From NCBI GenBank assembly GCA_965220085.1, contig CBDCOZ010000003.1:96001-160000 (forward strand): a DNA stretch of 64,000 nt, in the 5' to 3' direction. Below are positions 441-63,202 of this stretch, in pieces (the stretch's first letter is position 1; every line of letters begins with the position of its first letter). The notes under the pieces are model-generated. The model saw only the letters and a list, made by a program, of their open reading frames with translations, had not been told where the DNA came from and ran no database searches. This stretch comes from Candidatus Oxydemutatoraceae bacterium (GTDB lineage Bacteria; Pseudomonadota; Gammaproteobacteria; Poriferisulfidales; Oxydemutatoraceae). The position numbers were made by a program, and so were the translations under genes.

Positions 441-3110
441 ATGACAGGGCGCGGTCTTTTTATGCTGGCACTGCTGGCTGTCTGCGCCCAAGCGCAGGCG
501 CAGGCCAACAATGCCGCCACTGGTAATATATCTGTCGCCTACGCCAGCGGCACTGTGCCCACCGAGGATGTGCCGATAACCGCATCTGCAAGCAACATAG
601 CCGATGACGATGGCGTGCCCGACCCGCTCAGCCTGAGCTGGCAATGGAGCCAGTCCAACGACAACGGCGTCACCTACGACGACATCACCGCCACCGCCGA
701 AAACGGCGCGAACACCGCCACCTTCACCCCCGACCAGCCTCAGTCGAACAGGCTTCTGCAGGTCTGCGCATCGTTCGCCGACAACGCAAACAACTCCGAG
801 AAGCTATGCCACCGGATAGCCACCAGGGTGGTCAATGTCAATGACCCGCCCGACAACCCCATGTTTACCGTTGGGGATCACTCAGACGGCCCTGCACTGA
901 CTGGCGCACCCGTAGAGGACACGTCCATAACACTGGGATCCCAAGGCGTAAACGATGCCGACGGCTTTAGTGATCTCAACCGTACCACATATATTTGGAG
1001 CGCCGATAATGGCGGCGACGGGGTATTCACTGAAATCAGCAGACGAACCCTGTCTTTTACACCCGGCCAGGAACATGTCGGCAGTGTCATCCGCTGCTGT
1101 CTCACCTATAGGGATGACTTTAATGTCAGGGAAAGTTTCTGCATCATGACCCCCGAGCCGGTGGTCAACGCCAACGATGCGCCGGTGGCGCAACGAAGCA
1201 GTGTCGCGGTGCGCACCGATGCCACTTCCGCCGAGCCATATACATTCAAGCCATCCGACTTTCGCTTCGCCGATGAGGATGGCGATGCGTTGGCGAACAT
1301 CCGCATAACCGGCCTGCCCACTGGCAACTCCCAGGGTGTTGGCACTCTGCTCCTGAATGGCACCGCCCTGACCAGCGGCAACCTGCCGGTCACCTTGACA
1401 GCGGATGAACTTGATGACGGCGACCTCACCTATTATCCGACAGCCGGCAATGCGGCGGTCACCACCAGCAACAGCTTGTCAGCTGGATTCTATGCCCAAT
1501 TCAGCTTCAAGGTGGAGGACGATGGCGACGATATCAGGCTGGATGGCAATGGCGAAGAGATCGAGGCCAACGTAAGCGCCAACATCGGCTCCATGAACAT
1601 CCGTTTGGCAGACACCAGCGAGCAGGTCCCCGCCGGCGGCGCGCCCGCCATCTCCCCCTCGGGCGACAGCCACCGTCAGCACACCGTGCTGACCGCCGCA
1701 TACACCGACGATACCAACTTTATAATATTTGACCGCAACGGCATAGACGAGGGCACAGTCAGGTGGCAGTGGCAACAAGCCGCTCCGGTCAATGACGCGG
1801 TCCCCGCCGAAGCCAGCAGCGCCTGGACCAACATAACCGGGGCCACCGATGCCGCCTTCGCCCTGACCCAGGCCCAGGTGGGCATGCATACCCGCGTCCG
1901 CATCACCTTTGCCGATGGCCTGGGCAATACCGAGGGCCCGTTCTATTCCGCCTCCATCACGACCACCGATGTCGCCGATGCGCCAGTGGCGCCGGGTAAC
2001 ACCATCCCGGTGGCCGCGGGCCGCAGTTATGCTTTCTCGGCGGCTGATTTTCCGTCTAGCGACGAGGACGGGGATGCCTTGGTTCACATGCGACTGAGAA
2101 GTCTGCCTGACAACGGTACGCTGTCTCTCCGCCGCCCCGCCACCGCTACTGCTTCAACTTTAACGAGCGTTCCTGTAGTAGCATTCACAAGGGAAGAATT
2201 TGAGCAACTCGGAGAAGAAGGAGGGATCGAGTTGGTCTATGCCCCTCCCGCGGCTGCCACCACGCCCACGGCGAACTATGACAGATTTACGTACAGCGTC
2301 CAAACTGGCACGGATGCGGCGCCGAGCAACGAGGCCGTCATCACCATAGCCCTGGTGTCGGCCATGCAATCAACGGCAACCGGCGCGCCGACGGTGACAG
2401 CGGTTGCCGGCGCCGCCTACGCCGAGGACACGGAATTGACCGCCTCCGTCGACGACATCAGCGATGACAACGGCATAGACCGCAGAACCCTGATGTGGCA
2501 GTGGCAATCTGCCGCCGCCCCCGCTAACGGCACCGCCCCGGCGGTCAGAGCCTACGGTGCCATCGCCGGAGCCACCGCCGCCGCCTTCACCCCGTTGCAA
2601 ACCCATGTGGGCAGATACATCCGCGTCTGCCTGACATTCACCGACGGCATAGGCGAGCGCGAGGACCCGCTCTGTTCCGACGGTGAGCGGGTTGCCAATG
2701 TCAACGATGCGCCGATGACCGAAGACAGCGAAGTGTCCGTGCCCACCATGACCACCGAGGAGATGCCCTATGCATTCAAGGCGAGCGACTTCCCGTTTGC
2801 CGACGAGGACACCGGTGACTCTCTGCAAGGTATCACCATCACCGATGCGCCGGACAAGGGCGCTTTGTTGGTAGGCGGCGAAGCGCTGTTGACATCCGGC
2901 TCGAGCAAAAACAACGTGGTGTCTGTGTCCGACATCTCCATGCTCGCTTACTACCCGGCGGCCGATGCGGAAGCGGGGCGAAACTATGACTCATTTGAAT
3001 TCACTGTCAGCGATGGCACGGAGAGCAGCGTCGCCGCGTCAATGAGCATACATCTGGGGGCCGACCTGCGCTTGCGGTTGCGCATCTTCTTGGAGGGGCC
3101 GCTGCGATAG
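441..3110 (+). CDS. Secreted Ig/cadherin-like repeat protein with C-terminal LRLRLRIFLEGPLR tag (889 aa ORF)
   Basis: Signal peptide ...LLAVCAQAQAQ. Alternating modules 'ATGAP...WQWQ...FTP.Q..VG..IRVC...CS' and 'VNDAP...FK.SDFPF.DEDGD.L...LTYYP...YDSF.F.V.D'. C24 tract at 394-417 lies between RBS-linked ATG 278 and ATG 441, which are out of frame by 1. Confidence 0.85.
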   Translation: MTGRGLFMLALLAVCAQAQAQANNAATGNISVAYASGTVPTEDVPITASASNIADDDGVPDPLSLSWQWSQSNDNGVTYDDITATAENGANTATFTPDQPQSNRLLQVCASFADNANNSEKLCHRIATRVVNVNDPPDNPMFTVGDHSDGPALTGAPVEDTSITLGSQGVNDADGFSDLNRTTYIWSADNGGDGVFTEISRRTLSFTPGQEHVGSVIRCCLTYRDDFNVRESFCIMTPEPVVNANDAPVAQRSSVAVRTDATSAEPYTFKPSDFRFADEDGDALANIRITGLPTGNSQGVGTLLLNGTALTSGNLPVTLTADELDDGDLTYYPTAGNAAVTTSNSLSAGFYAQFSFKVEDDGDDIRLDGNGEEIEANVSANIGSMNIRLADTSEQVPAGGAPAISPSGDSHRQHTVLTAAYTDDTNFIIFDRNGIDEGTVRWQWQQAAPVNDAVPAEASSAWTNITGATDAAFALTQAQVGMHTRVRITFADGLGNTEGPFYSASITTTDVADAPVAPGNTIPVAAGRSYAFSAADFPSSDEDGDALVHMRLRSLPDNGTLSLRRPATATASTLTSVPVVAFTREEFEQLGEEGGIELVYAPPAAATTPTANYDRFTYSVQTGTDAAPSNEAVITIALVSAMQSTATGAPTVTAVAGAAYAEDTELTASVDDISDDNGIDRRTLMWQWQSAAAPANGTAPAVRAYGAIAGATAAAFTPLQTHVGRYIRVCLTFTDGIGEREDPLCSDGERVANVNDAPMTEDSEVSVPTMTTEEMPYAFKASDFPFADEDTGDSLQGITITDAPDKGALLVGGEALLTSGSSKNNVVSVSDISMLAYYPAADAEAGRNYDSFEFTVSDGTESSVAASMSIHLGADLRLRLRIFLEGPLR

Positions 3111-3164
3111 CGCGAGCAATCCCATCGCAAGACTTGCGCTAACACGCTTCCTTGTGGCAAGCAA

Positions 3165-3222
3165 TACTCTCCCCTTGTGGGAGAGTCAGCGAGCTTCGCT
3201 CGCCGGAGAGGGGGAGAGTCGT
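3165..3222. repeat. REP-like palindromic element downstream of tagged genes (also about 6604-6650, 6770-6793, 9919-9940)
   Basis: Imperfect hairpin ACTCTCCCC-TTGT-GGGAGAGT plus GCGAG-CTTCG-CTCGC, repeated after three stop codons. Confidence 0.6.
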
Positions 3223-3562: not shown

Positions 3563-3792
3563 CGCAGTACTAAGAGTGCTGGCACTCATTAGTACAATTT
3601 CGTTTGCTAGACAACTACGAGGAGTAAATACGATGAATCGACAATCTGCCAAAGGCACTTGCACAATGGCTCGCACTGATAGCAGAATAACTGCTACCAT
3701 AGACTGCTATAGGAGTAATACTATGAATAAACAAGTTTTTAATACTGCCCCCCCCCCCCCCCCCCCCCCTGCGCACATACGGGTGGGCAACG

Positions 3793-6396
3793 ATGACAGG
3801 CCGCGGTCTTTTTATGCTGGCACTGCTGACCGTCTGCGCCCAAGCGCAGGCACAGAACAATGCCGCCACCGGTAATATATCTGTCGCCTACGCCAGCGGC
3901 ACTGTGCCCACCGAGGATGTGCCGATAACCGCATCCGCGAGCAACATAGCCGACACCGATGGCGTGCCCGACCCGCTCAGCCTGAGCTGGCGATGGAAAC
4001 AGGTCCACCCCGTCAACAGCGCCATTACCGACATAGAGGGCGCCACCTCCGCCACTTTCACCCCCGACCAGCCCCAGGTGCGCTTTTTTCTGCGCGCCTG
4101 CGCATCGTTCACAGACAACGTCGGAAACAGCGAGGAGCTGTGCCACCAGATAGCCACCGCCGTGGCCAATGTCAATGACCCGCCCGCCCCCGTGCTTACC
4201 ATTGGAAGCGACCTGAACTCCCCTGAACTGACCGGCGCACCCAGAGAGGGCGCATCCTTAACACTGGCAGGCTCCAACATAAACGACCCCGACGGCGTCG
4301 ATGAGTTTTTCTCCCAATCCCTATGGATTTGGGACCAGGACGATGGCGGCAACGGGGTATTCGTCAATGTGCTCACATCGAGCAACGCCGCCGCATTCAC
4401 CCCGACTCAGGAACATGTCGGAAATCGCATCCGCGGCTGTATCAGGTACAGAGATGACTTTAGTGCCATGGAAAAGGCCTGCGTCACCACCCTGCCGGTG
4501 GTCAACGCCAACGATGCGCCGGTGGCGCAACTCGGCAGAGTGGCGGTGCCCGTCAACGCCACCTCCGCCGAGCCATATCCATTCAAGCCGACCGACTTCC
4601 CATTCACCGATGAGGATGGCGATGCGCTGGCGAAAGTCCAAATAACCGCACTGCCCACTGGCGGCGGCCAGGGTGGCGGCACTATGGCCAGGAATGGCGC
4701 CGCCCTGACCAGCGGCGACCTGCCGGTCACCCTGACAGTGGCGCAACTTGAGGCTGGCAACCTGACCTATTATCCGACTGCCAGCAATGCGGAGGTCACC
4801 ACCAGCAACAGATTGTCATCTGGATTCTATGCCCAATTCAGCTTCAAGGTGGAGGACGATGGCAGCGATGGCGAGGATGACAAAGTTAGCGTGGATGCCG
4901 CCACAATCAACATCCGCCTGGTATCCACCAGCCAGGCCGCCGCCGGAGGTGCGCCCGCCATCACCCCCTCGGGCGCCAGCCAACCCCAGCACACCGTGCT
5001 GACCGCCGCATACGATGACGGCACGAACTTTATAATATTTGACCGCAACGGCATAGACGAGGGCACAGTCAGGTGGCAGTGGCAGCAAGCCGCCCCGGTC
5101 GATGGCGCGGCCCCGCCGCCGACAAGCAGTGCCTGGACCAACATAACCGGGGCCACCGATGCCGCCTTCGCCCTGACCCAGGCCCAGGTGGGCATGCATA
5201 CCCGCGTCCGCATCACCTTTGCCGATGGCCTGGGCAATACCGAGGGCCCGCTCTATTCCGCCTCCATCACGACCGCCGATGTCGCCGATGCGCCGGTGGC
5301 GCCGGGCAATACCATCCCCGTGGCCGCGGGCCGCAGTTATGATTTCTCGGCGGATGATTTTCCGTTTAGCGACGAGGACGGGGATGCCTTGGTTCACATG
5401 CAATTAGTCAGTCTGCCTGACAACGGTACGCTGTCTCTCCGCCGCCCCGCCACTGCTACTGCCTCAACTTTAACGAGCGTTCCCGGAGCATTCACAAGGG
5501 ACGAATTGGAACAACTCGGAGAGGAAGGAGGGATCGAGTTGGTCTATGCCCCTCCCGCGGCTGCCACCACGCCCACGGCGAACTATGACAGATTTACGTA
5601 CAGCGTCCGAACCGGTACGGGCGCGGCGCAAAGGGATAGCAACGAGGCCGTCATCACCATAGACCTGGTACCGGCCACGCAATCAACAGCAACCGGCGCG
5701 CCGACGGTGACAGCGGTTGCCGGCGCCGCCTACGACGAGGACACGGAATTGACCGCCTCCGTCGACGGCATCAGCGATGGCAACGGCATAGACCGCAGAA
5801 CCCTGATGTGGCAGTGGCAACAGTCCGCCACTCAGGCCGGCACCTACGCCGACATCGCCGGGGCCGCCGCCGCAGCCTTCACCCCGTTGCAAGCCCATGT
5901 CAACCGATACATCCGCGTCTGCCTGACATTTGAAGATGGCATAGACACGACCGAGGGCCCGCTCTGTTCCGCTGGTGCGCGGGTTGCCAATGTCAACGAT
6001 GCGCCGACGACCAAAGACAGCGAAGTGTCCGTGCCCACCATGACCACCGAGGAGATGCCCCATGCATTTCAGAAGAGCGACTTCCCGTTTGCCGACGAGG
6101 ACGCCGACGACTCTCTGCGAAGTATCGCTATCACCAGCACGCCGACCGCAGGCATCTTGCGCGCGGGGACGACGAGAATCACCGCAAGCAATGTGCCATA
6201 CGAGGTAGAGGCAGACGACATCTCCATGCTCGCCTACTACCCGGCGGACGATGCGGAAGCGGGGCGAAACTATGACTCATTTGAATTCACTGTCAGCGAT
6301 GGCACGAAGAGCAGCGCCGCCGCGTCAATGAACATCCATCTGGGGGGCGACCTGCGCTTGCGGCTGCGCATCTTCCTGGAAGGGCCGTTGCGGTAA
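3793..6396 (+). CDS. Secreted Ig/cadherin-like repeat protein with LEGPLR tag (867 aa ORF), paralogue of 441-3110
   Basis: Same architecture as 441-3110. Probable true start is ATG 3723 (RBS AGGAGT, MNKQVFNT), separated by C22 (3748-3769) and out of frame by 1. Confidence 0.85.
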   Translation: MTGRGLFMLALLTVCAQAQAQNNAATGNISVAYASGTVPTEDVPITASASNIADTDGVPDPLSLSWRWKQVHPVNSAITDIEGATSATFTPDQPQVRFFLRACASFTDNVGNSEELCHQIATAVANVNDPPAPVLTIGSDLNSPELTGAPREGASLTLAGSNINDPDGVDEFFSQSLWIWDQDDGGNGVFVNVLTSSNAAAFTPTQEHVGNRIRGCIRYRDDFSAMEKACVTTLPVVNANDAPVAQLGRVAVPVNATSAEPYPFKPTDFPFTDEDGDALAKVQITALPTGGGQGGGTMARNGAALTSGDLPVTLTVAQLEAGNLTYYPTASNAEVTTSNRLSSGFYAQFSFKVEDDGSDGEDDKVSVDAATINIRLVSTSQAAAGGAPAITPSGASQPQHTVLTAAYDDGTNFIIFDRNGIDEGTVRWQWQQAAPVDGAAPPPTSSAWTNITGATDAAFALTQAQVGMHTRVRITFADGLGNTEGPLYSASITTADVADAPVAPGNTIPVAAGRSYDFSADDFPFSDEDGDALVHMQLVSLPDNGTLSLRRPATATASTLTSVPGAFTRDELEQLGEEGGIELVYAPPAAATTPTANYDRFTYSVRTGTGAAQRDSNEAVITIDLVPATQSTATGAPTVTAVAGAAYDEDTELTASVDGISDGNGIDRRTLMWQWQQSATQAGTYADIAGAAAAAFTPLQAHVNRYIRVCLTFEDGIDTTEGPLCSAGARVANVNDAPTTKDSEVSVPTMTTEEMPHAFQKSDFPFADEDADDSLRSIAITSTPTAGILRAGTTRITASNVPYEVEADDISMLAYYPADDAEAGRNYDSFEFTVSDGTKSSAAASMNIHLGGDLRLRLRIFLEGPLR

Positions 6397-6475
6397 TGGC
6401 AAACACACGCGCACAAGTGAGTATTGCCATTGAAGGCGGCGCCGATGGTCGGACTCAAGCCGGCGCGGCTTACGC

Positions 6476-6552
6476 CCGCGTCAATGAACATCCATCTGGG
6501 TGCCGATCTGCGCTTGCGCTTGCGCATCTTCCTGGAGGGGCCGTTGCGATAG
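6476..6552 (+). pseudogene. Orphan duplicate of the 3' tag region (MNIHLGADLRLRLRIFLEGPLR*)
   Basis: Near-copy of 6320-6396 located 156 bp downstream. Confidence 0.8.
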
Positions 6553-7113
6553 CGAGCAATCCATCGCAAGACTTGCGCTAACATGCTCCCTTGTGGCAAG
6601 CAATACTCTCCCCTTGTGGGAGAGTCAGCGAGCTTCGCTCGCTGGAGAGGGGGATAAACCACACTCCCTCTCGCACCATCCCCGAAGGCGAGACGGTAGG
6701 GAAGCAGCGATAGCAACGCCCGAACCTTTCCCCCTCACCGCATCGTCCTTCGCCTGCGGCTCGTCCTCTGCGACTCTCCCGCGAGGGGAGAGTCGTGGGG
6801 TGCGCACAAGGGAGTGACAGACAGACTTGCAAAGGACTTGTGCTTTGTGGTAGAGTAGAATACTAAGAGTACAGCACTCATTATTAAGAGTACGGTACTC
6901 ATTTATACGACTGCATTAATATGGCTACATTTACCAGACAAGACTAAACATCAGGAGGAAGACTATGATTTGTGATAGAGTGCATAGCATTAAGCGTACC
7001 AACACGCACCGTACAATCGTATTCACTAGACAAGCCATGAGGGGGGCCGCCATGAAGCAAAAAATATTTAATACCCCCCCCCCCCCCCCCCCCCCCTCGC
7101 ACTAGGGGTAGCG

Positions 7114-9864
7114 ATGATTCGGCGCTTCCTCTTGTTGCTGGTTCTGCTTGCCCTGTTTGCCGTCTACACCCAGGCCCAGGCCCGCACCGACCAGACAGCG
7201 GGTGACTTCGTAGCGCCGGTCGTCCCCCAGGCTGCGCCCATTGCCGTAGGCCCTTCGGCGCCCGTGGGGGCGCTGACCAGCGCCACCGCCGACAATCCGC
7301 ACTACTTCACGGCCAATGACTTCGGTTTTGTGGACTTCGACGGCGACCGTCTGCAAAGTGTGATCATAAAGACTCTGCCGAATCTTGGCACCCTGAGGGT
7401 AGGCGCCGCTAATGTTGTCATAGGCGCCAACAATACTGTGGCGATGATGGCCATCGCCACCCTGAACTATTACCCCCCATCGGGTCAGTCCCCGCAATCG
7501 AACTACGCCAGTTTCACCTTCAGTGTCACCGCCGGCGATGAGGAATCCAACATCGCCGCCGTCCGCATAGACCTGCGCGCAACCGCTCAGGTGGCCGCCA
7601 CCGGCATGCCCGACATAGCATCTGTGCGCTCCGGCCTGCTCAATGCCGCCCATTACGACAAGGACGAGGAGCTGTTTGGCCTGGCCATTTTCAACGGCAT
7701 CACCAACCTGCAAGTCCAACGCAGCTCAATCATCCAGAACGGCGGCGCGACCGCCTTTGCCTCCGCCGCCTTAGGCGCCATCAGCGACCACAACGGCATC
7801 GGCTCAAGCATCAGTTGGCAATGGCAACAGTCCGCTACCAGCGATGGCACATATGCGCCCGTCAGCGGTGCCAACCCAGTCAGAGTCACCACAACCATCA
7901 ACAGAATCACCCCGCGCCAGGCCCAGGTGGGCAAATACATCCGCGCCTGCGTCACCTTCAATGACCTCCACGCCACCTCCAACTCCGAGACGCTGTGTTC
8001 CGCCAGCGCCCGCATAGTGGATGGCGGCGAACGCCCTGCCGGCGGCGACAGCACCGTCAGTGTGCCGGACAACGCCAACGCCGCCAGCCCGCACCGCTTT
8101 GCCGCCGCCGACTTCCCCTTCAGCGATACGGGCGGCGATACCATCAACGGCATCCGCATAATATCCCTGCCCTCCAGGGGCACGCTGGCGGTGGCGGGCG
8201 ATACCAATGTCACCATAGCCGTCGGCACCGAACTCAGCCAGGCGCAGTTGAACGCCCTGGCCTACTACCCGGATGCCTACGCCAGCCCCGAGCCGGGCTA
8301 TGCCACCTTCACATACCGGGTACACGATAGCGGCAGCGATGACGCCACCAACACCGCCACCGGCGATTCCACCCTTACCATAGATCTGGCTCCCACCACC
8401 ACAGAACAGGTCGCCGCCAGCGGTCGCCCGGACTTTACCGGCGGCGCCACCCAGGGCCAGACCCTGAGCGCCGCCATCGGCACAGTGCGCGATGCCAACG
8501 GCATCAACCGGGATACCATCGCCTGGCAATGGTATCAAGCCCCCACCGATGCCGATGTTTTTCCCCCTACCGGCGACTTCGTCCCCATAGCGGATGCCGC
8601 AGAGGCCGAGCTTGTGCTCACCCAGGCCCAGGTGGGGCATCTTGTGCGCGTCTGCATCAGTTTCACCGACACCCACAGCGCCCCCAACCCCGAAGGCCCG
8701 CTCTGCTCCATCATCTTTTTCATACAGAACATCAACGATGCCCCCACCGGCGACGACACCATTGTGATGGTACCTGCCGCCGCCGCCGCCGCCAGCCCGC
8801 ACAACTTTGAGCGCGGCGATTTTCCATTCATGGATATAGATGGCGATGATCTGGCCGGCATCCGCATAGCCAGCCTGCCGACAGGCGGCACGCTGGTGGT
8901 GGCGGGCGATGCCAGTGTCACCATAGCCGTCGGCACCGACCTGACTCTGGCACATCTGGATGCTCTGGCCTGGTATCCCCATGACAACGCCACCCCAGGC
9001 AATGGCTACGACAGTTTCACCTACTGGGTGCGCGATGATATGGGCGGAAGCGCCTCCATCGCGCAGGACGCATCCACCCTCACGATAGATCTCATCAGCG
9101 CAACCCCGACCGCCGCCGGCGGTCAGCCCGCCATCAGCGGCGCCGCCACCCAGGGCCAAACCCTGAGCGCCGCCATCGGCACAGTGCGCGATGCCAACGG
9201 CCTGAACCCCGCGACCTTGCGTTGGCAATGGTATGCGGCCGCGCCGGACGACGGCTCGGCGCCGGCGGCGGACAGCAGCGCCTGGGCCGCCATAGCCGAT
9301 GCCACCGCCGCCGCCTTCATCCCGGCCCAGGCCCAGGTGGGCATGCACATCCGCGTCTGCGCATTCTTTATGGACAGCCACGCCACCAGCCCGGCAGCCG
9401 AAGGCGGCACCGTCGTCGCTCCCACGCTGTGCTCCGCAGCCAGTGCGCAGGTTGCCAATGTAAACGATGCGCCGATGACCGAAGACAGCGAAGTGTCCGT
9501 GCCCGCCACGGCCACTGCGATGATGCCCTATGCATTCAAGGCGAGCGACTTCCCCTTTGCCGATGAGGACGGTGACTCTCTGCAAAGTATCACCATCACC
9601 GGCATGCCGACCAAGGGCGCCTTGCGCGCGGGTACGACGATTATCACCGCAAGCAATGTGCCATACGAGGCAAGCGACATCCCCGAACTCAACTACTACC
9701 CGGAGGTGACCGAGACTGAAGTGGAAGCGGAGCGAAACTATGCCTCATTTCGATTCACTGTCAGCGATGGCATGGCGAGCAGTGCGCCTGCCACCATGAG
9801 CATACATCTGGGTGCCGACCTGCGCCTGCGCTTGCGCATCTTCCTTGAAGGGCCGCTGCGATAG
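7114..9864 (+). CDS. Secreted Ig/cadherin-like repeat protein with LEGPLR tag (916 aa ORF)
   Basis: Hydrophobic signal ending TQAQA, alternating repeat modules and the tag. Upstream ATG 7052 (MKQKIFNT) plus C23 (7074-7096) is out of frame. Confidence 0.85.
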   Translation: MIRRFLLLLVLLALFAVYTQAQARTDQTAGDFVAPVVPQAAPIAVGPSAPVGALTSATADNPHYFTANDFGFVDFDGDRLQSVIIKTLPNLGTLRVGAANVVIGANNTVAMMAIATLNYYPPSGQSPQSNYASFTFSVTAGDEESNIAAVRIDLRATAQVAATGMPDIASVRSGLLNAAHYDKDEELFGLAIFNGITNLQVQRSSIIQNGGATAFASAALGAISDHNGIGSSISWQWQQSATSDGTYAPVSGANPVRVTTTINRITPRQAQVGKYIRACVTFNDLHATSNSETLCSASARIVDGGERPAGGDSTVSVPDNANAASPHRFAAADFPFSDTGGDTINGIRIISLPSRGTLAVAGDTNVTIAVGTELSQAQLNALAYYPDAYASPEPGYATFTYRVHDSGSDDATNTATGDSTLTIDLAPTTTEQVAASGRPDFTGGATQGQTLSAAIGTVRDANGINRDTIAWQWYQAPTDADVFPPTGDFVPIADAAEAELVLTQAQVGHLVRVCISFTDTHSAPNPEGPLCSIIFFIQNINDAPTGDDTIVMVPAAAAAASPHNFERGDFPFMDIDGDDLAGIRIASLPTGGTLVVAGDASVTIAVGTDLTLAHLDALAWYPHDNATPGNGYDSFTYWVRDDMGGSASIAQDASTLTIDLISATPTAAGGQPAISGAATQGQTLSAAIGTVRDANGLNPATLRWQWYAAAPDDGSAPAADSSAWAAIADATAAAFIPAQAQVGMHIRVCAFFMDSHATSPAAEGGTVVAPTLCSAASAQVANVNDAPMTEDSEVSVPATATAMMPYAFKASDFPFADEDGDSLQSITITGMPTKGALRAGTTIITASNVPYEASDIPELNYYPEVTETEVEAERNYASFRFTVSDGMASSAPATMSIHLGADLRLRLRIFLEGPLR

Positions 9865-10209: not shown

Positions 10210-11150
10210 ATGAAAAAAACTAAAGACTTAAAAGCAGAAGATACGGCGGGGGTTGCTTATGACCCCGTCGATAACTTGACCGGCGCGGGCTTTGACAAAC
10301 AGAAAGCAGACGCGATTGCCAACGAGCAACTTGCGCTGGTGCGCAGACATCTGCGCACTCTGCTAACCAGAGAAGAGTTTGCCAAGTTTGAAGCAGTGAC
10401 TCAAAAAGAATTTGACAAGTTTGAGTTAGCGCTCAAAGAAAACAGGGCTCAGTGGAAAGAAGAGTTAGACAAGTTTGAGTCAGCCATGAAAGAAGCGCTG
10501 ACCGGTTAGCGACGAAAGAAGAATTGGCCGCTCTTGAAGCAGCCATGAAAGAAGAGCTGACCAAGTTGAGAGAAGCGTTAGACAATCTGGCGACGAAAAA
10601 AGAGATTGCCGAGTTCAAGTCAGAGATCAAAGAACACATAAATCAGTTGGAAAAAGAGCTGACCAAGTTGAGCGAAGAATTGACCAATCTGACGACGAAG
10701 AAAGAGTTAGGCGAGTTCAGCTCAGAGATCAAAGAAAACATAGATCGGTTGGAAAAAGAATTGGCTCGGTTGAGAGAAAAGTTAATTCAGTTTGAATTGG
10801 CAATAAAAGAAGGCTTAGCCAAGTTCAAGTCAGAAACCCAAAAAGACATAGCGCAGTTGCAAAAAGAATTGGACGAGTTCAAGTCAGAAATCAAAAAAGA
10901 GATGAATCAGTTGAGAAGAGAGATAACTGAGTTGAGAAAAGAATTGACCAAGGTGAGAGAAGCGTTAACCGATCTGGCAACCAAAAAGGAGTTAGCCGAG
11001 TTCAGAAAAGACATGGAAAATATGGCAACCAAAAAAGATCTGGAAAATCTGGCGACTAAAGAAGACGTGGCTAAGGCGACAATAGGAATCATAAAGTGGC
11101 TTGTATTAACCGCACTTGCGTTAGCGGCTGCGATAGCCGCATTTATGTGA
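10210..11150 (+). pseudogene. DUF1640/CCDC90-like coiled-coil protein with C-terminal TM helix, split by a 1-nt frameshift at about 10505
   Basis: N-terminal 'AGFDKQKADAI', repeated 'LATKKEL.EF' motifs and C-terminal 'IIKWLVLTALALAAAIAAFM'. ORFs 10210-10509 and 10524-11150 join if one base is added at ACCGGTTAGCGACG. Confidence 0.7.
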
Positions 11151-11495: not shown

Positions 11496-11790
11496 ATGTT
11501 TACACCAATTTACCCCCCGCGCTGGCGGGCAACGATGGCTCGGTTTGGTCTCTTGTTACCGTCGGTGATGCGGCGCAGCCTCCGGCTACTGGTTCTGCTG
11601 ACCCTGTTGGTTATCTGTGCGCAGGCGCAGGCGCAGAACAAAGCCGCCACCGGCGCACCAGCGGTCACGGCGGCAGACAGTGCCGACCTGACCATGGTGG
11701 GGGCCCAATGAGGACATCTTTCTCACCGCCGCCAGAGTCGCCGGTTTGCTCTTGCGGTTGCGTATCTTCTTGGAAGGCCCGCTACGATAG
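11496..11790 (+). pseudogene. Internally deleted, frameshifted tagged gene (signal peptide fused almost directly to the tag)
   Basis: Reads ...LLVICAQAQAQNKAATGAPAVTAADSADLTMV. An extra G at 11699-11703 follows, then GPNEDIFLTAARVAGLLLRLRIFLEGPLR*. The two ends match the two ends of 13702-14912. Confidence 0.8.
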
Positions 11791-15453: not shown

Positions 15454-15655
15454 GTTTTCCTTTTCGCTTGCTTTGTCGGGCAAGTCTATCACCCCTTATG
15501 CGAAAAGGCAAATGTGCGGGCATCAAGCCTCGCGGGGAAACCACAGGGAGAACATCTCCGCCCTAAGCAAAGTGAATCATGCCAGAAACATTCCGGATTC
15601 CCGGCATCAACACGAGTTGCTGTAATATCAACACCCCAGCCGCTCCCTGCCGCCC

Positions 15656-15700
15656 CTGCGCCTGCGGCTGCGTCTCTTCCTGGAAGGCCCGTTGCGATAG
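15656..15700 (+). pseudogene. Orphan LRLRLRLFLEGPLR* tag closing array 1
   Basis: Intact tag codons with no upstream gene body. Confidence 0.8.
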
Positions 15701-28546: not shown

Positions 28547-28635
28547 TGCGACCAATCGCACAAACGAACACTCCGCCTTGCGCGAAGCGCGTGCTTGGGG
28601 ATGTATAATGAAGGTTTCATGCGGGATGACTCATA

Positions 28636-29508: not shown

Positions 29509-29567
29509 CGGGTATCCTGCGGCGGAGAAGGGGAGTGAAGGTGTGCAGGGGTGAGACAGGAGGCGCT

Positions 29568-29660
29568 TGCACACAACCGAATGTGTGGTATAGTGCGACA
29601 TCCTTTTGACGCAAGTGCAGATGAAACTTGCGAATGATTGAATGTGTGGTATAGTGCAAG
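29568..29660 (+). promoter_or_regulatory. Tandem promoter-like units TTGC(G/A)x-N16-TATAGT (also about 32198-32286, 61676-61765, 63283-63372)
   Basis: Two copies of TTGC...GAATGTGTGGTATAGTGC upstream of the AGGAGTAA RBS. Confidence 0.65.
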
Positions 29661-29713
29661 ACTTATATTGAGCAAACGCCTTCGCTGGCCACGAGTTATC
29701 AGGAGTAACAGAT

Positions 29714-33665: not shown

Positions 33666-33916
33666 CGGCGGTCAGGGGGAGCGATATATGCGAATGTGGC
33701 ATAGAATACACAGGCGATGCAAAGAGTTTTCTATCCATCTATTTTGATTACGATGTCTGCGGCGTGTGCTACGCGTGAGTGCGCCGGTCGGTCGTCGTCT
33801 TTGACAATTTTGATTACGGCGACCGCCGCATGCGTTGCGCGTAATTTTTTGCCGGGCCGAAGCGCTGCGGCGTTGCGGTCGACCGCTGTGAAGAGAAACC
33901 GACTCGGTGATTGACG

Positions 33917-53443: not shown

Positions 53444-54444
53444 CTATCGCAACGGGCCTTCAAGGAAGAGGCGCAGCCGCAAGCGCAGGCCCGCATTCGT
53501 CACACGGGCGCCGATGGAGCAGAGCGGCCCCTCCTGCACCGGGGTTGCGTGGCGGTCCATAAAGCGGACGCAGAAGCGCAGATATTGGCCCGCCAGGGCC
53601 TGGGTGGGCGTGAATGTGATGGCGGTCGCACTTGCTATGGCGGTGAATGTGCCATCGCTGGCGGAGGATGACTGCCATTCCCACCTCAGGGTTTCGCGGT
53701 TTATGTCGTTGGGTTCGACTATGCCGCTGGTGGTGGCGGTCAGCTGGGTGCCCACCATATAGGTGGGGTTTTCGGCGGTGATGAGCGGTTGCGTGGTGGG
53801 GTTGCCGCTGGCGGCGACCTGGGCCGGTGCCACCAGGCGGATGTTTAGTCTGACTGAGTTAATGCTGACGGTTTCGCCGCTGCCATCGTCCATTACTTTG
53901 AACCTGAAGTTGGTATACCTGAGAAGGGGATTGTCGGGGTCGGTGGGTTCCTGGCCCGGCTCCGGGTAATAGTTGAGAGTGGGTATGGTGCCCACAGTCA
54001 CCGTCTGCGGCACTGTGGATGAGGTGATGGCGGTGGCGTCCACCCGCAGGGTGCCGGCACTCGGCACACTTTCTATGATGACGGCGGTCAGACTGTCGCC
54101 ATCGGCATCGGTGAACGGAAAGTCGGCTGACTTGAAATAAAACGGGGTGTCGGCATCGGCATCGGTGCTCACAAGAACTGTGGTGCCGCCGGGATCCGGC
54201 CGGGCTTGGGCCCGGGTGACCGGGTCTGCATTGCTGTGCGGTTCGGTACTACGCGCTTGGGTCGCTACAACAACGAACAAACAGAGCAGGAGACCAGTCG
54301 TTATCCGATGGTTTCGGACGCGCGCACAGGGGGGGGGGGGGGGGGGGGGGTAGTATTAAAATCTTTTTGCTTCATGCTATATGCTTGCAAATACAATCGC
54401 TTCCTCCTGTTAGAGGGGGTAGTATTAAAAGTTCGTAGGTTCAT
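53444..54444 (-). CDS. Secreted cadherin/Ig-like tagged protein, out of frame at C22 (G22 at 54329-54350 on +)
   Basis: ATG 54444/54375 (MKQKDFNTT). The main frame has CARVRNHRITTGLLLCLFVVVATQA with no start before the h-region. Ends GLRLRLRLFLEGPLR. Confidence 0.8.
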
Positions 54445-55058: not shown

Positions 55059-56343
55059 CTATCGCAACGGGCCTTCCAGGAAGAGGCGCAGCCGCAAGCG
55101 CAGGCCCGCATTCGTCACACGGGCGGGGATGGAGCAGAGCGGCCCCTCTGACGCCGGGGTTGGGTGGCTGTCCATAAAGCGGACGCAGAAGCGCAGATAT
55201 TGGCCCGCCAAAGCCTGGGTGGGCGTGAATGTGATGTCGTCCGCACTTGCTATGGCGGTAAAAGTGCCCTCAGCAGTGGCCGATGACTGCCACTCCCACA
55301 TAAAGGTGTCGCGGTCTATGCCGTTGGGTTCTTCTATGCCGATGTTGGTGGCGGCCAGCTGGACACCCACTATATAAGCGGGGCTTTCGGCGGTGATGGC
55401 CGGGGTTGTGGTGGGGTTGCCAGTGGCGGCGGTCTGGACCAGTGCCATCACCTGAGCAGGGACGGAGCAGAGCGGCCCCTCTGACGCCGGGGTTGGGTGG
55501 CGGTCCATGAAGCGGACGCAGAAGCGCAGATATTGGCCCACCAGAGCCTGGGTGGGCGTGAATGTGATGGCGGTCGCGCCTGTTATGGCGGTGAATGTGC
55601 CGTCGCTGGTGGCGGATGACTGCCATTCCCACATCAGGGTGCTACGGTTTATGCCGTTGGGCTCGACTATGCGGTTGGTGGTGGCGGTCAGCCGGACACC
55701 CACCATATAAGCGGGGCTTTCGGCGGTGATGGCCGGGATTGTGGTGGGGTTGCCGGTGGCGGCGGTCTGGGCCGGCGCCACCAGGCGGATATTGATTTGC
55801 ACAGTGTTGGAGCTGACCGTTTCGCCGCTGCCATCGTCCTGTACCGAGAACCTCATTATGCCATAGTGCCCGGTGAAAGAGGGGTTGTCGGGGTCGCTGG
55901 GCTCCTGGCCCGGCTCCGGGTAATAGGTCAGGGCGCCGGCAGCCAGCTGGGCCACGGTTATGGGGTTTTCAGGCACGGCGGTCAGCGCTGTGCCGTTCAG
56001 CGACAGGGTGCCCCTCAGGGTGCTGGTGTTGCCCGATACATGCGGCAACGTTCTTATGATGACAGCGGCCAGCACATCGCCATCGGCATCGGTGAGCGGA
56101 AAGTCCGTGCCCTTGAATACATATGGGTTGGCGGCATCGGCGGCAGTGCTCACGAAGATCGCATTGGAGGATGCTATCGGCCGGGCTTGGGCCCGGGCGG
56201 TCGGGTCTGCGTTGCCGTGCGGTTGGGTATCGGCTTGGGCGAATAAGGCGAGCAGGCAGAGCAGGAGGCCGGTCGCTATCCTATGGTTTCGGACGCGCGC
56301 ACAGGGGGGGGGGGGGGGTAGTATTAAAAATCTGTCTATTCAT
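55059..56343 (-). CDS. Secreted cadherin/Ig-like tagged protein with duplicated Ig module, out of frame at C15 (56304-56318)
   Basis: RBS AGGAG; ATG 56343 (MNRQIFNTT); signal CARVRNHRIATGLLLCLLALFAQA in the main frame; ends in the tag. Confidence 0.8.
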
Positions 56344-56804: not shown

Positions 56805-57713
56805 CTATCGCAGAGGGCCTTCAAGGAAGAGGCGCAACCGCAAGCGCAGGTTCCCGCCACTAGCCACACGGGCGGGGACGGAGCAGAGCGGCCCCTCCTG
56901 CATCGGGGTTGGGTGGCGGTCCATAAAACTGACGCAGAAGCGCAGATATTGGCCCGCCAGGGCTTGGGTGGGCGTGAATGTGATGGCGGTCGCGCCTGTT
57001 ATGGCGGTGAATGTGCCGTCGTCGCTGGTGGCGGATGACCGCCATTCCCACATCAGGGTGTCGCGGTTTATGTTGTTGGGTTCGTCTATGCCGCTGGTGG
57101 TGGCGGTCAGCCGAGCGCCCACGATATAGGCGGGGTTTTCGGCGGTGATGAGCGGTTGCGTGGTGGGGTTGCCGCTGGCGGCGACCTGGGCCGGCGCCAC
57201 CAGGCGAATGTGCATATCGGCAGTGGCGGAGCTGATGGCGTTGTCGCTGCTATCGTCTGCCACCTTGAACCGAAATCCAGTGTAGCGGGCTTCGGTAGTA
57301 ATGTCGTCAGGATCACTGGGTTCCTGACCCGGCGCTGGGTAATAGGTCAGGGCGCCGGCAACCAGTTGAGCCGCGGTGATGGGGTTTTCAGGCACGGCGG
57401 TCAGCGCTGTGCCATCCAAGGCCATGGTGCCAGTGGATGGCAGCCTGCTTATGATGACACTGCCCAGCATATCGCCATCGTCGGCATCGCTGAACGGAAA
57501 GTCGGATACCTTGAACACAAATGGGGTATCGGCATCGGCGGCGGTGCTTACAAGAACTGTGTTGGAAGAGGTTAGCGGCCGGGCTTGGGCCCGGGCGGTC
57601 GGGTCTGCGTTGCTGTGCGGTTGGGCGCTGCGCGCTTGGGTCGCTACAACAACGAACAAGCAAAGCAGGCCGGCTGTTATCTGGCGGGCATGGGCGTTTT
57701 GGCGGTTTGACAT
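56805..57713 (-). CDS. Secreted cadherin/Ig-like tagged protein, no poly-C
   Basis: RBS AGGAG; MSNRQNAHARQITAGLLCLFVVVATQA; ends NLRLRLRLFLEGPLR. Confidence 0.85.
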   Translation of the reverse strand: MSNRQNAHARQITAGLLCLFVVVATQARSAQPHSNADPTARAQARPLTSSNTVLVSTAADADTPFVFKVSDFPFSDADDGDMLGSVIISRLPSTGTMALDGTALTAVPENPITAAQLVAGALTYYPAPGQEPSDPDDITTEARYTGFRFKVADDSSDNAISSATADMHIRLVAPAQVAASGNPTTQPLITAENPAYIVGARLTATTSGIDEPNNINRDTLMWEWRSSATSDDGTFTAITGATAITFTPTQALAGQYLRFCVSFMDRHPTPMQEGPLCSVPARVASGGNLRLRLRLFLEGPLR

Positions 57714-57732
57714 AGGGCTCCTGATGGCGGCG

Positions 57733-58209
57733 CTAGTAGGAGACGCCGGCTTGTTCCAGCATGTAGTCAACCGTCGCTTTTATCGCATCATCGGAGAGGT
57801 CGGCGCGTCCGGCTTTGGGCGGCATATTGCCGCGACCCGCTATCGCCGATTGGTACATCGCCTCGAGGTCGCGCTCTTTCATCCGCGCAAGCCACGCGGC
57901 TTTGTCGGTCAACTTGGGCGATTCCAGCACGCCGCTCAGGTGGCAGGCTTGGCAGACCGATTGATAGATCGCTTCCGGCGTCATGTCGGCTTTTGCCGTC
58001 GCTGTCGGAGTTTCCGTTACGGCGCCGACCTCTCCCACATTGACGCGGGAAATCGGTTTGATACGTTCTTTCGTCGCGTGCAACAGAGCGGCATCGGTTT
58101 CGCGATGGCTTTCGGATAACGCCGTTGCGATGATGAAAATGATGACCGCTATCAGAACGAGACCGGCCAATATGGCGCCGAAATAATTGAGAAATTCTTG
58201 ATCTTTCAT
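57733..58209 (-). CDS. Membrane-anchored cytochrome c5
   Basis: N-terminal TM helix, ERIKP, CQACH heme motif and MPPK axial Met. Confidence 0.9.
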   Translation of the reverse strand: MKDQEFLNYFGAILAGLVLIAVIIFIIATALSESHRETDAALLHATKERIKPISRVNVGEVGAVTETPTATAKADMTPEAIYQSVCQACHLSGVLESPKLTDKAAWLARMKERDLEAMYQSAIAGRGNMPPKAGRADLSDDAIKATVDYMLEQAGVSY

Positions 58210-61030: not shown

Positions 61031-61413
61031 TGAGCGTCGCCACCGAATACGATTTGATCATGCACATAGAAGGAAACATGTTGCTCTCTGAAATGGAGGA
61101 CTTCATCAACAACACGGCTTTGTGTCCGGATCTGTCCGCCGTGCCGGAGAACGCTTCCGGCGCGGTTGATTGTGCGAACCAATCCTGCAGCGAGTGGGAA
61201 TTTACGGCTTTTCAATTTGCGCTGTGGCAATGCCGGGTCGGGATGCGGTCCGAAGATGCGGCGGTTTGTGATGACGGCAAGTACCGCTTGCCGCGCAAGG
61301 CGAAGCTGTCCGTCAGCTCGGCAGGCGATCAGTTTACGCTTGAATTGGAATGGAGCGGCAGCGGCGGGCAGGTGAAGATATCGCGGACTATGCGCTCCCG
61401 TTGCGGTTCGTAA
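60938..61413 (+). CDS. Putative PilV-like minor pilin
   Basis: G|YLMMELLAAIAL..FG..G prepilin-like N-terminus and C....C...E.....W; follows fimT. Confidence 0.7.
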
Positions 61414-61550
61414 TCGGACAGGTCGCTTGCGGTGCGCCCGCGCACCGCTTAGCCCGCATCTATGTCGGCACACCCAATCGGTCAAACTTTTGCGGAGCTA
61501 AGCCGCGCAAGCCGTGCGCTTGCAGGGTGCCGGCAACTCAAGCAAAGCCT

Positions 61551-61595
61551 TGCAAGTTGCCGTTGCGCCTTTTCCCGGAAGGCCCGTTGCGGTAG
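61551..61595 (+). pseudogene. Degenerate orphan tag (KLPLRLFPEGPLR*) opening array 4
   Basis: The following ~330 bp are nearly identical to the sequence after 63202. Confidence 0.75.
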
Positions 61596-61819
61596 CGCGA
61601 GCGCGAGCGCCCTGCGGCGGAGCAGGGGGTATTATGGGGCGCACACAAGGGGAGTGAGGCAAGATACAAAGGCACTTGCGAATGATCGAATGTGTGGTAT
61701 AGTGCGACATCCTATTGGCGCAAGTGCGCATGAAACTTGCGGATGACCGAATGTGTGGTATAGTGCGAGACTCATAAGCAACCATATTCGCTGACCACAA
61801 GCTATAAGGAGTAATAGAT

Positions 61820-63202
61820 ATGAACAAACAAATTACTAATACCGCCCTTCAGAAAAGCGACCAAACGTGTCGCGCTCTTCTATGCAGAGCTATGAATAGA
61901 CAAATTATTAATATCACCCCCCCCCCCCCTACTGCGCTTAGAATTTGTGCGGCGGTAATACTCGCCTGCGCATTCGCAAACAGCGCGTACGCGCAAACCG
62001 AATGTGCGGCGGACAAGCCATTGATGAACGAAGGCGTGTGCGTTGCCAGTTGTCCGTCGGGACGGGAAGCTGTTCGCGGAACTTGCTACGCTGTCTGCGC
62101 AGCGGGGGAGACGCGAGTCACGCACCCGAACCGCGTCCCGGTTAACACCGGATGCTTTGCCGATGCCACGGCCAAAATGCTGAGCGATTGCGAAGCCGCG
62201 GGATGGGGGAGTCGGACGGCTATCTTGTTGGATTTCTTCCAACTCGGAACGGGCTGTCTGATTCCCTCAAGACAGGTGGGCCACGGGTCCTCGGATGCGT
62301 GCAACACCAATTTGGGAAGAGCTCCGTTCTGCACGGATGTGTACGGCGCCCCGCCGGTTTTTCCGAAAGCGGCGGACCATACCGATGTCACCGCCTCTTC
62401 CGGAAAAACCTTTGTCGCAAACTGCAACCGAGACGGGACTGTCCCCGGCGGTTATCCGCCGAACCACAACTTGAACGGCGAAACCGAATGCGCATGCAAT
62501 CGGGATTCGCACGTCGGCGACTGGCCGGACTGCGCGGCCTTTCCGGTCAGTCTGACGGCGGCGGATAGGGCGATGGCGCGGACATGTGTGGCGCGAGGGT
62601 GGAGTATTTCCACCGCCACCGCCGCCTCTATCAAATGCGAAGTTCCGCTGACCTCCGGCGAGGATACTTTTGACGGGTGCTTTCTCGGCGGTCAGGATTC
62701 GCCGCTGTGCGCGGATGTTTTTGGCGCGGGGTTCGCCCTGCCGGCAAGGGAGGTTCCGCAGTTGGTTTTGAATCTTGCCAACGCCTTTGACGCAAAGCTT
62801 AGCGCACAGCTTGGCGATGTTGTCAGAGCCGCCGCGCCGGTTTACGCGGAGGCGGTATGGGCGCGACACAACGGCGATCCGAATTATGCGGACGGCCCTA
62901 TCAACAACCACAACAGCAACAGCGATGCCGACAAAAGCAACATTGCCGTTCAGGTTGCGGCTCCGGTTTTCACGGCGCATGGAATTCCTTTTAACTGGGG
63001 GCTGGATGTCTCGCGGATTCCGGCTGCGATTCGGTTGGCGTACAGTCGTATTCCGGTGGCGGTGCCGTATGTTTTCAATTGCGGGGAGGGCATGTTTCCG
63101 ACAACGGTCAACACTTACGGCGCGACGGCATGCGCTGCCACCGACCCGCGCATGCGCTTGCGGCTACGGCTGCGCATCTTTCTGGAAGGCCCGCTGCGGT
63201 AG
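61820..63202 (+). CDS. Secreted Cys-rich tagged protein (460 aa), C13 in frame
   Basis: RBS AGGAGT; leader ...MNRQIINITPPPP; signal ending AYAQ; paralogue of 12139. Confidence 0.85.
   Translation: MNKQITNTALQKSDQTCRALLCRAMNRQIINITPPPPTALRICAAVILACAFANSAYAQTECAADKPLMNEGVCVASCPSGREAVRGTCYAVCAAGETRVTHPNRVPVNTGCFADATAKMLSDCEAAGWGSRTAILLDFFQLGTGCLIPSRQVGHGSSDACNTNLGRAPFCTDVYGAPPVFPKAADHTDVTASSGKTFVANCNRDGTVPGGYPPNHNLNGETECACNRDSHVGDWPDCAAFPVSLTAADRAMARTCVARGWSISTATAASIKCEVPLTSGEDTFDGCFLGGQDSPLCADVFGAGFALPAREVPQLVLNLANAFDAKLSAQLGDVVRAAAPVYAEAVWARHNGDPNYADGPINNHNSNSDADKSNIAVQVAAPVFTAHGIPFNWGLDVSRIPAAIRLAYSRIPVAVPYVFNCGEGMFPTTVNTYGATACAATDPRMRLRLRLRIFLEGPLR

Follow-up and report, generated by a model that had tools for sequence, protein, structure and literature searches.

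How might a bacterium that has lost the barrels of its autotransporters still bring their passengers to the outer membrane, and what would hold them there? The question is raised by a 64,000-nucleotide stretch of DNA from Candidatus Oxydemutatoraceae bacterium (GenBank assembly GCA_965220085.1, contig CBDCOZ010000003.1, positions 96,001 to 160,000), which we call the window and which was analysed as C3:96001-160000 of a three-contig, 2.49-Mb genome. At 17 sites in the window one 14-residue peptide, LRLRLR[I/L]FLEGPLR, stands directly before a stop codon, and the initial annotation, made from the sequence alone, proposed this tag as a new C-terminal sorting signal. What is new here is that, as judged by sequence comparison, the nearest foreign homologues of the tagged proteins are classical autotransporters with a barrel where the tag sits. 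Our preferred reading, which we hold tentatively and short of an even chance, is that the tag acts as the functional C-terminus of about 170 autotransporter-type passengers, the product of a lineage-specific expansion, which have lost linker and barrel, and that it may be a strand-like remnant for targeting or tethering at the outer membrane. The case touches two open questions, namely by what route the passengers of autotransporters get through the outer membrane and what minimum of sequence the β-barrel assembly machinery (BAM) needs to accept a client, and it amounts to a natural experiment in which a superfamily discarded its barrel yet kept one strand-like peptide under very strong selection.

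Autotransporter homologues and the tag junction

The 916-aa window protein was compared with 1.84 billion representative proteins, giving 2,682 matches at E <= 0.001, and the best 150 were inspected. Nineteen of these 150 carry the exact tag and were taken as paralogues from the same genome, because the other outside protein search for the tag (hits of 200-637 aa, see below) found none elsewhere. Among the 131 foreign proteins in the best 150 of 2,682 matches, tag-like motifs occur only as chance matches, and 21 have barrel-like ends in ..R-W or ..R-F. The autotransporter β-domain PF03797 scored above its cut-off of 26 bits in four of five foreign matches tested (41.8, 45.9, 53.4 and 31.7 bits) and gave nothing in the fifth. 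One foreign protein, P0102, also has a signal peptide of the type found on tagged proteins, ..AQNATGEP.

When seven foreign autotransporter proteins were searched by BLAST against the open reading frames (ORFs) of this genome, homology to tagged proteins always stopped at the end of the last passenger domain. The autotransporters continue from ..TLTFGKDI into EEQVKQVSAIL.., a linker helix followed by the barrel; the tagged proteins continue from ..SIHLGADL into RLRLRIFLEGPLR and a stop codon, with the tag starting directly after the conserved G-x-D-[I/L]. Since homology ends at this common junction, the tag replaces about 400 residues of linker and barrel. A PF03797 profile search gave 0 matches in this genome and none over the cut-off in 18 genomes of the same family, and tblastn with the seven foreign C-terminal domains recovered two partial relics in this genome and nothing else:

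C3:835606-836031: relic 1, the last ~140 barrel residues, 70% identical to P0102 (tblastn)
C3:1518535-1518821, minus strand: relic 2, the last ~90 barrel residues, frameshifted, a few bases 3′ of the tag and stop of a tagged gene (tblastn)

The position of relic 2, directly past a tag and stop, indicates that at least one autotransporter gene was converted, tag and stop being pasted in where the linker and two thirds of its barrel had been. Relatives that carry barrels are known solely from metagenome contigs, P0102 and P0096 on one of 830 kb and P0033 and P0044 on one of 475 kb. By homology, the tagged proteins are shown to descend from autotransporters and to have lost the barrel.

The tag also resembles what it replaced. 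Foreign barrels of this group end in [Y/W]-R-L-[Q/R]-A-R-L-R-W and relic 2 ends in S-D-L-R-L-R-A-R-L-R-W; taken together with the residue before it, the tag reads D-L-R-L-R-L-R-[LIV]-F-L-E-G-P-L-R. The Arg codons of relic 2 (CGC/CGG/CGC/CGA) each agree with the majority codon of the corresponding tag position. In the nonamer L-R-L-R-L-R-x-F-L, Leu lies on one face and Arg or Phe on the other, and because of this alternation we liken it to a membrane-spanning barrel strand. The part of PMC10945584 drawn on here describes a nine-residue strand recognised by BAM, hydrophobic-x5-[aromatic/hydrophobic]-x-[aromatic/hydrophobic], and, for the final strand of outer-membrane proteins (OMPs), a β-signal zeta-x-G-x-x-[aromatic/hydrophobic]-x-[aromatic/hydrophobic]. 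Residues L1, L7 and L9 of the tag agree with the nine-residue internal-signal descriptor as given there; of the β-signal, the sub-motif [hydrophobic]-x-[hydrophobic] is present (L7-F8-L9) and the Gly is absent. On this resemblance, the first nine residues of the tag probably derive from the last strand of a barrel or imitate it.

Selection on the tag and its distribution

Translation bore out all 17 copies that the initial annotation had counted in the window, each with a stop directly after the tag (16 TAG, 1 TAA). Sixteen follow the consensus [L/M/K]x[L]R[L]R[L/I]FLEGPLR, and the site ending at 61595 is a degenerate copy, LPLRLFPEGPLR. Twelve tags end ORFs of 240-916 aa, one (end 31112) caps the C-terminal piece of the frameshifted gene 29714-31112, and four are on remnants of 24-83 codons (ends 6552, 11790, 15700 and 61595). 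Genome-wide, a six-frame search for the core F[LP]EGP[LIVM]R gave 219 occurrences, 214 of them with a stop immediately after (TAG 135, TAA 51, TGA 28), and the degenerate back-translated DNA pattern of the tag matched 216 times, its reversed pattern 0 times. In the crude set of 2,074 ORFs on which all ORF totals rest, 170 bear the tag (8% of genes); these comprise 154,077 codons, or 18.5% of the genome, and the largest encode giants of about 4,000 to 14,000 residues. The last residue is Arg in all 211 unique copies of the strict set.

Across these 211 unique copies the mean column entropy at the three codon positions of the tag is 0.55, 0.14 and 0.91. The 60 bases 5′ of the tag are unrelated among copies, all three stop codons are used, and the six bases past the stop are weakly conserved, with conservation gone beyond them. 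A looser ascertainment, R[LIVM]R[LIVM]F followed by 6 aa and a stop, leaves all but residues 4-8 and the spacing to the stop free and yielded 221 copies (212 unique). In this set, residues 8-14 show a proportion of synonymous differences (pS) of 0.55 and of nonsynonymous differences (pN) of 0.03, a dN/dS of about 0.03, and FLEGPLR is intact in 201 of the 212 unique copies, the remainder being single substitutions or chance matches. In one family of 14 paralogues, R-L-R-L-R-L-F-L-E-G-P-L-R is invariant at a mean body column identity of 33%. The tag peptide is under strong purifying selection. The earlier claim that its DNA varies mostly at synonymous sites thereby stands, and the dN/dS near 1 that would have counted against the proposed signal is not what residues 8-14 show.

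These data also bear on a reading at the level of DNA or RNA, by which the tag is a recombination handle, a terminator, the end of a gene-converted cassette or an inert relic, and the peptide a by-product. Adjacent tagged genes lie on the same strand in 58 of 59 pairs, in tandem arrays; gene 3′ ends are tandemly repeated; tag and stop were evidently pasted before the barrel remnant at C3:1518xxx; and there is the weak conservation of six bases 3′ of the stop. We nevertheless regard this reading as very improbable. Gene conversion is rejected as the cause of tag identity because it would homogenise synonymous sites too, yet pS is about 0.5 at a pN of 0.03; second codon positions are almost invariant and third positions variable; and conservation ends within those six bases. 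A DNA-level explanation of the tag is hence disfavoured. What the DNA does suggest is a shared ancestry: the preferred codon differs by Arg position (CGC, CGG/CGC, CGC, CGA/CGG), the final Arg is CGA in 118 of 211 tags (CGA makes up 8.6% of Arg codons genome-wide), and TAG closes 61% of tagged ORFs vs 23% of untagged ones, a pattern that speaks for common descent of the tag DNA and not for convergence.

Among everything searched, the tag is confined to one genome. Its DNA pattern, which matches 216 times here, had 0 matches in 60 related genomes, 18 of them of the same family, and no match among 185,579 species genomes or JGI metagenome contigs. A search of 5.8 billion proteins with the tail only returned proteins of this genome and no others (19 of 113 candidates, 200-637 aa long), and an ESM Atlas feature search with the last 24 residues gave no usable match. 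A literature search on the string 'FLEGPL' in article text, supplementary files not covered, found nothing, and searches on sponge symbionts with sorting signals and on barrel-less autotransporters found nothing relevant. Bodies of the tagged type gave 94 matches in this genome vs weak matches in 2 of 20 relatives. The housekeeping genes point to a gammaproteobacterium, GlyQ for instance matching diverse members of the class at no more than 68%. With the tag in one genome only, phylogenetic profiling has nothing to work on and co-occurrence cannot be scored.

Carrier proteins, their genes and poly-C tracts

The tag had been described as capping unrelated bodies, and this holds for the ends of the proteins better than for the whole. 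The 100 aa preceding the tag fall into 11 BLAST clusters (60, 35, 29, 21 and 14 members, one of 2, and five singletons), so the tag is borne by at least five different last domains; the two families of 29 and 21 members are Cys-rich. By single-linkage clustering, 167 tagged proteins chain through shared modules into one cluster of 184, and as judged from these modules the tagged bodies are a mosaic superfamily, not wholly unrelated proteins. Pfam finds Big_9, cadherin-like and CshA/SCAB-Ig-like modules in the window proteins and no match in the Cys-rich ones. Tagged proteins are poor in Lys (1.0% vs 4.9%) and rich in Thr, Asp and Gly. Clear Sec-type signal peptides with A-x-A sites occur among them, and most tagged proteins begin with one of a single recurring type in which ..L-F-x-V-C-A-Q-A-Q-A-Q precedes N-A-T-G at the cleavage site, and a crude heuristic flagged signal peptides in 118 of 166 tagged vs 430 of 1,491 untagged ORFs. 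An AlphaFold2 model of a 302-aa window protein, built with its family alignment, has a mean predicted local distance difference test score (pLDDT) of 61.8; the tag residues lie at about 50 and 37, with no strand packed on the last domain, and the tag is thus modelled as a flexible tail.

The carriers and remnants in the window are as follows, with the basis of each call in brackets.

441-3110, plus: tagged ORF, 889 aa, Sec signal peptide, Big_9/cadherin-like body; tag 3066-3107, stop 3108-3110 (translation, Pfam)
3793-6396, plus: tagged ORF, 867 aa, paralogue of 441-3110; tag is the final 14 codons, stop TAA (translation, Pfam)
6424-6552, plus: short repeat of a gene 3′ end with a second tag copy, 43 codons stop to stop (translation)
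7114-9864, plus: tagged ORF, 916 aa, Big_9 domains; the query that found the autotransporter homologues (translation, Pfam)
11692-11790, plus: tag-ending remnant, 32 codons stop to stop (translation)
12139-13386, plus: tagged ORF, 415 aa, Cys-rich, no Pfam match; poly-C tract within the leader (translation, Pfam)
13722-14912, plus: tagged open frame, 396 codons, signal peptide in frame; upstream ATG (MNKQVFNTA-polyPro) in a different frame across poly-C (translation)
15626-15700, plus: tag-ending remnant, 24 codons (translation)
28636-29508, plus: tagged ORF, 290 aa, Cys-rich; first tagged gene between ubiJ and ubiB (translation, Pfam)
29714-31112, plus: frameshifted tagged gene; N-terminal piece 29714-30736, tag-bearing C-terminal piece 30666-31112 (translation)
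31220-32140, plus: tagged ORF, 306 aa, signal peptide, cadherin-like (translation, Pfam)
32424-33395, plus: tagged open frame, 323 codons, last 600 nt 561/600 identical to 31220-32140; start codon out of phase across C28 (translation)
53444-54355, minus: tagged open frame, 303 codons, last domain CshA/SCAB-Ig-like; start codon out of phase across poly-C (translation)
55059-56339, minus: tagged open frame, 426 codons, CshA repeat; signal peptide in frame upstream, ATG in another frame (translation, Pfam)
56805-57770, minus: tagged ORF, 321 aa (P0004); tail flexible in the AlphaFold2 model (translation, AlphaFold2)
61350-61595, plus: 81-codon ORF with the degenerate tag LPLRLFPEGPLR at its end (translation)
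61820-63202, plus: tagged ORF, 460 aa, Cys-rich; leader with poly-C tract (translation, Pfam)
63641 onward, plus: further tagged gene running off the window (genome tag search)

Five of these genes (28636-33395) split ubiJ from ubiB in the gene row ubiE-ubiJ(SCP2)-ubiB(ABC1) at window positions 27216-35455. Between the two blocks of tagged genes lie genes for a XerC/D-type tyrosine recombinase (21010-21924) and an Mrr-like restriction endonuclease (24695-25453). Gene 3′ ends including the tag stand in tandem, in 2-4 copies spaced by about 117-168 nt, at window 6396-6552 and at C3:513743-514211, 908957-909461 and 1303686-1303926. Window positions 10210-11150 (ORFs 10210-10509 and 10524-11150) hold one split copy of a family of 12-13 members, whose N-terminus is conserved (..NLT-x-AGFD..) and which have a coiled coil and, at the C-terminus, a transmembrane segment; Pfam gives weak coiled-coil matches only. 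Of 12 copies, 10 have a tagged gene no more than three genes away, where the background is 0.256 (binomial P about 5e-5, the copies not being independent). Another family occupies C3:189880-220058; its roughly 10 members are secreted, contain Cys, measure about 290-350 aa, end in ..NLNRYCSDSN and have no tag.

Many tagged genes begin with a long homopolymer. In all, 100 homopolymers of C or G, 8-28 nt in length, occur in the genome, and a coding-strand poly-C at the 5′ end marks 70 of 170 tagged vs 7 of 1,904 untagged ORFs. The poly-C encodes the poly-Pro of a common leader, M-N-(K/R)-Q-(I/V)-F-N-T-(T/A)-Pn, which lies 5′ of the signal peptide. The window contains these tracts:

394-417, plus: C24, leader of 441-3110
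3748-3769, plus: C22, leader of 3793-6396
7074-7096, plus: C23, leader of 7114-9864
12164-12181, plus: C18, encoding poly-Pro within the leader of 12139-13386
13727-13745, plus: C19, in the gene ending at 14912, past the upstream ATG and ahead of the signal peptide
29814-29832, plus: C19, leader of 29714-31112
32445-32472, plus: C28, leader of the gene ending at 33395
54329-54350, minus: C22 on the coding strand, leader of the gene ending at 53444
56304-56318, minus: C15 on the coding strand, leader of the gene ending at 55059
61917-61929, plus: C13, leader of 61820-63202
63524-63542, plus: C19, upstream of the further tagged gene from 63641 onward

In four window genes the ATG is out of frame with signal peptide and body across the tract. 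This qualifies the claim that every carrier has a Sec signal peptide: by eye, one is clear in 8 of the 12 long window ORFs, and the other four seem to lack it because their ATG sits in another frame across the poly-C, the signal peptide being in frame upstream. Homopolymer length errors in the assembly could mimic such out-of-phase starts. Contigs aligned to the window break at the poly-C tracts and so yield no tract lengths, which means that length variation was not seen directly, and a search of sequencing runs for this stretch gave one study only, with no RNA run listed. Phase-variable surface genes switched by homopolymer tracts are familiar from Neisseria, Haemophilus, Campylobacter and Bordetella. 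The loci here are like them in having a long poly-C between start codon and signal peptide with several genes out of phase, and unlike them in the unusual length of the tracts (to 28 nt) and in their number (70 tagged genes). The analogy suggests that the tagged proteins are phase-variable surface proteins, switched on and off, and would give this host-associated, probably sponge-associated, bacterium a very large and apparently phase-variable adhesin-like repertoire.

The position of the tag had been called invariably C-terminal. This holds for all 17 window sites and 214 of 219 sites genome-wide; internal occurrence, which would have counted against a terminal signal had it been frequent, is limited to five of 219 sites, so C-terminality is not absolute. 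Two of the five look like lost stop codons, and three lie near the N-terminus of proteins built of a signal peptide, about 25 residues, the tag, a G-G-S-S linker and the body:

C1:23868-25292, C1:36358-38001 and C3:1171425-1173515: N-tagged genes with a shared 5′ module, two with PPC-repeat bodies and one encoding a trypsin-like protease (547 aa)

The module of about 170 nt (signal peptide, tag and Gly/Ser linker) is about 95% identical in DNA across the three genes, which therefore reflect recent spread and hold little information on selection. The 547-aa protein has no match of its own in Pfam, NCBIfam or PDB sequences and is called trypsin-like solely through its paralogue P0021 (PF00089, 24.9 bits). 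Its four homologues, the paralogue and three metagenome proteins, have a C-terminus of a Gly-rich stretch, a hydrophobic stretch and RRRK, which is missing from the N-tagged copy; this tail is anchor-like by eye and is not recognised as GlyGly-CTERM by NCBIfam. The case, a single one, suggests that the tag can replace another type of anchor and need not be C-terminal.

Outer-membrane routes and known systems

The reading that we prefer would run as follows. Ancestral passengers would have lost linker and β-barrel, with the tag taking over at the G-x-D-[I/L] junction. L-R-L-R-L-R-[LIV]-F-L would descend from or mimic the last strand [YWL]-R-L-[QR]-A-R-L-R-W, and E-G-P-L-R would be a short periplasmic extension. 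The tag might be recognised by β-strand addition to a β-barrel, either BamA within BAM or another outer-membrane protein, and this strand pairing would target the exported protein to the outer membrane and tether it there. Type II secretion is the obvious candidate for the crossing itself, and the Cys-rich bodies would suit export in the folded state. The earlier idea that a component of the outer membrane reads the tag as an amphipathic β-strand is strengthened and given an evolutionary rationale, as the tag replaces linker and barrel and resembles a last strand; the dedicated machinery that went with the idea has no support.

The initial annotation had seen no machinery gene in the window, and we likewise found none among the window genes; the dedicated translocon, anchor or processing enzyme that it postulated did not turn up in searches of the genome either. 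The envelope genes found include a complete gsp type II cluster (C, D, A, B, E-N), a second secretin with ATPase, one TolC-like gene and a single BamA, the only Omp85 protein. A CsgG search of the genome gave 0 matches; ShlB/TpsB and Slam searches were blank, their controls equally silent, and hence are uninformative. The PDZ proteases form an ordinary set (two DegP-like, one Ctp-like, RseP), nothing links the two rhomboid-family genes to the tag, and no multi-copy family of outer-membrane acceptors appeared in all-against-all clustering. A co-fold of BamA residues 345-765 and the C-terminal 90 residues of the 889-aa protein yielded no verdict, with a score of 0.00 against a mark of 0.34 and no controls alongside. 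GspC, considered as a partner of the tag, has no PDZ match and no genome-specific domain.

Several of these results and others weigh against a strand that acts at the outer membrane. No partner of the tag was found, and BamA is ordinary: it aligns over its full length with those of 18 family relatives at 41-52% identity, and its last 480 residues have no genome-specific insertion or deletion of 3 aa or more relative to them. If about 170 proteins each left a lone strand on BamA, one would expect this essential machine to jam. The resemblance to a last strand spans just 7-9 low-complexity residues, the codon match depends on one relic that was possibly itself converted by a neighbouring tag, and the [YW]RLQARLRW of relic 1 and most foreign barrels is less tag-like. 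The ORF of relic 1 has no match in Pfam or NCBIfam by itself, although tblastn with foreign barrels confirms this relic. Nor is the tag a canonical β-signal by the motif in the part of PMC10945584 cited above, as it has no motif Gly, no terminal aromatic residue, five residues past the strand and no barrel to close. Finally, the three N-terminally tagged proteins reverse the topology.

A bolder version is a barrel-less branch of type V secretion, in which one strand would suffice to send and hold about 170 passengers by pairing in trans with BamA or a resident barrel, which would also serve as shared conduit or anchor. We think this rather doubtful. If true, it would provide a natural minimal signal for outer-membrane sorting and anchoring and a new mode of Gram-negative surface display.

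The gsp genes allow a different arrangement, in which the proteins fold in the periplasm and leave through Gsp, with the tag as a Gsp address or as a retention peptide for a surface receptor (protein or lipopolysaccharide), BAM playing no part. Type II secretion is the sole Sec-dependent outer-membrane route detected in the genome, where the autotransporter and CsgG searches gave 0 matches and Omp85 is single; the two large Cys-rich families (29 and 21 members) suit folded export; the tag is cationic and amphipathic; and one protease has exchanged a tripartite, anchor-like C-terminal tail for it. The part of PMC12369372 (2025) used here also reports that the PDZ domain of EpsC is required for the secretion of one substrate. 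We still judge this arrangement unlikely, since all 18 family relatives have the type II system too and none has the tag, GspC is conserved at full length with no extra genome-specific domain and no PDZ in Pfam, near-invariant FLEGPLR speaks against plain charge-driven binding to lipopolysaccharide, and the resemblance to a last strand is left unexplained.

The uniformity of the tails invites the idea of self-assembly, by which identical tails would stack into a shared β-sheet core (cross-β or oligomeric) and bundle adhesin domains in one surface or matrix structure. Alternating Leu and Arg with one Glu, the pattern of the tag, is typical of self-assembling β-sheet peptides; in-register stacking needs identity across copies, which is observed; and the arrangement needs no co-evolving partner, which fits a tag found in one genome, and would allow the tag at either terminus. 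It is improbable all the same, because Arg ladders repel once stacked, there is no curli-type channel by the CsgG search and no nucleator or chaperone was identified, and aggregation in the periplasm is harmful.

Slightly less credible is a periplasmic signal, either a mark for a protease or stress sensor that reads C-termini (Ctp/Prc-type, or DegS/DegP-type with PDZ) or a device tuning translation termination, that would control the amounts of phase-variable proteins. The free C-terminus kept at 214 of 219 sites, the presence of PDZ proteases and the odd final codons (CGA for the last Arg, TAG for the stop) point in this direction; yet the PDZ set is an ordinary one, a degradation mark on 18.5% of the genome makes little sense, common descent of the tag DNA explains the codon biases equally well, and all three stops occur, with weak conservation of the six bases that follow.

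If, as in the preferred reading, the tag targets or tethers proteins at the outer membrane, it would define a minimal signal, one that can be made synthetically and joined to reporters and that might find use in surface display; should its role be a different one, the 170 barrel-less passengers would still call for an explanation.

The claim that the tag fits no known signal stands for the 10 tagged window proteins searched, which match no sorting-signal model in NCBIfam at E <= 0.1 and none in Pfam. The tagged proteins differ from type I secretion substrates in their clear Sec signal peptides, and the genome has one TolC-like gene. The C-terminal domain (CTD) of type IX secretion (T9SS) is a folded domain of about 70-100 residues, in a system known from Bacteroidota. 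The tag is like it as a common C-terminal element on very many large Sec-exported surface proteins, giant adhesins included, and unlike it in having 14 residues, in belonging to a gammaproteobacterium, in following 11 clusters of preceding sequence and in matching nothing in Pfam or NCBIfam. With LPXTG/sortase, PEP-CTERM/exosortase and GlyGly-CTERM/rhombosortase it shares the format of a short C-terminal signature on many different exported proteins of one genome and, in one protease, it stands in place of a Gly-rich, hydrophobic and basic tail; unlike those signals, it alternates Leu with Arg, has no hydrophobic run or helix and no basic cluster, and is not confined to the C-terminus, and no sortase-like enzyme is linked to it, exosortase and sortase not having been searched for. 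As to the OMP β-signal and internal signals in the cited part of PMC10945584, the tag likewise has a nine-residue amphipathic, strand-like stretch, hydrophobic at positions 0, 6 and 8; unlike the β-signal, it has neither the Gly nor the terminal aromatic residue, continues with EGPLR past the strand and belongs to no barrel, and any binding to BAM is hypothetical. From type Va autotransporters (PF03797) the tagged proteins differ in that 13-14 residues replace the ~400-residue linker and 12-strand barrel, and with no intact PF03797 barrel in the genome, self-translocation of type Va is not possible. They share with them the Sec signal-peptide type with ..AQ before NATG.., the passenger modules (Big_9, cadherin-like, SCAB-Ig/CshA-like) and homology up to the common G-x-D-[I/L] junction, and relics of the barrel persist in this genome.

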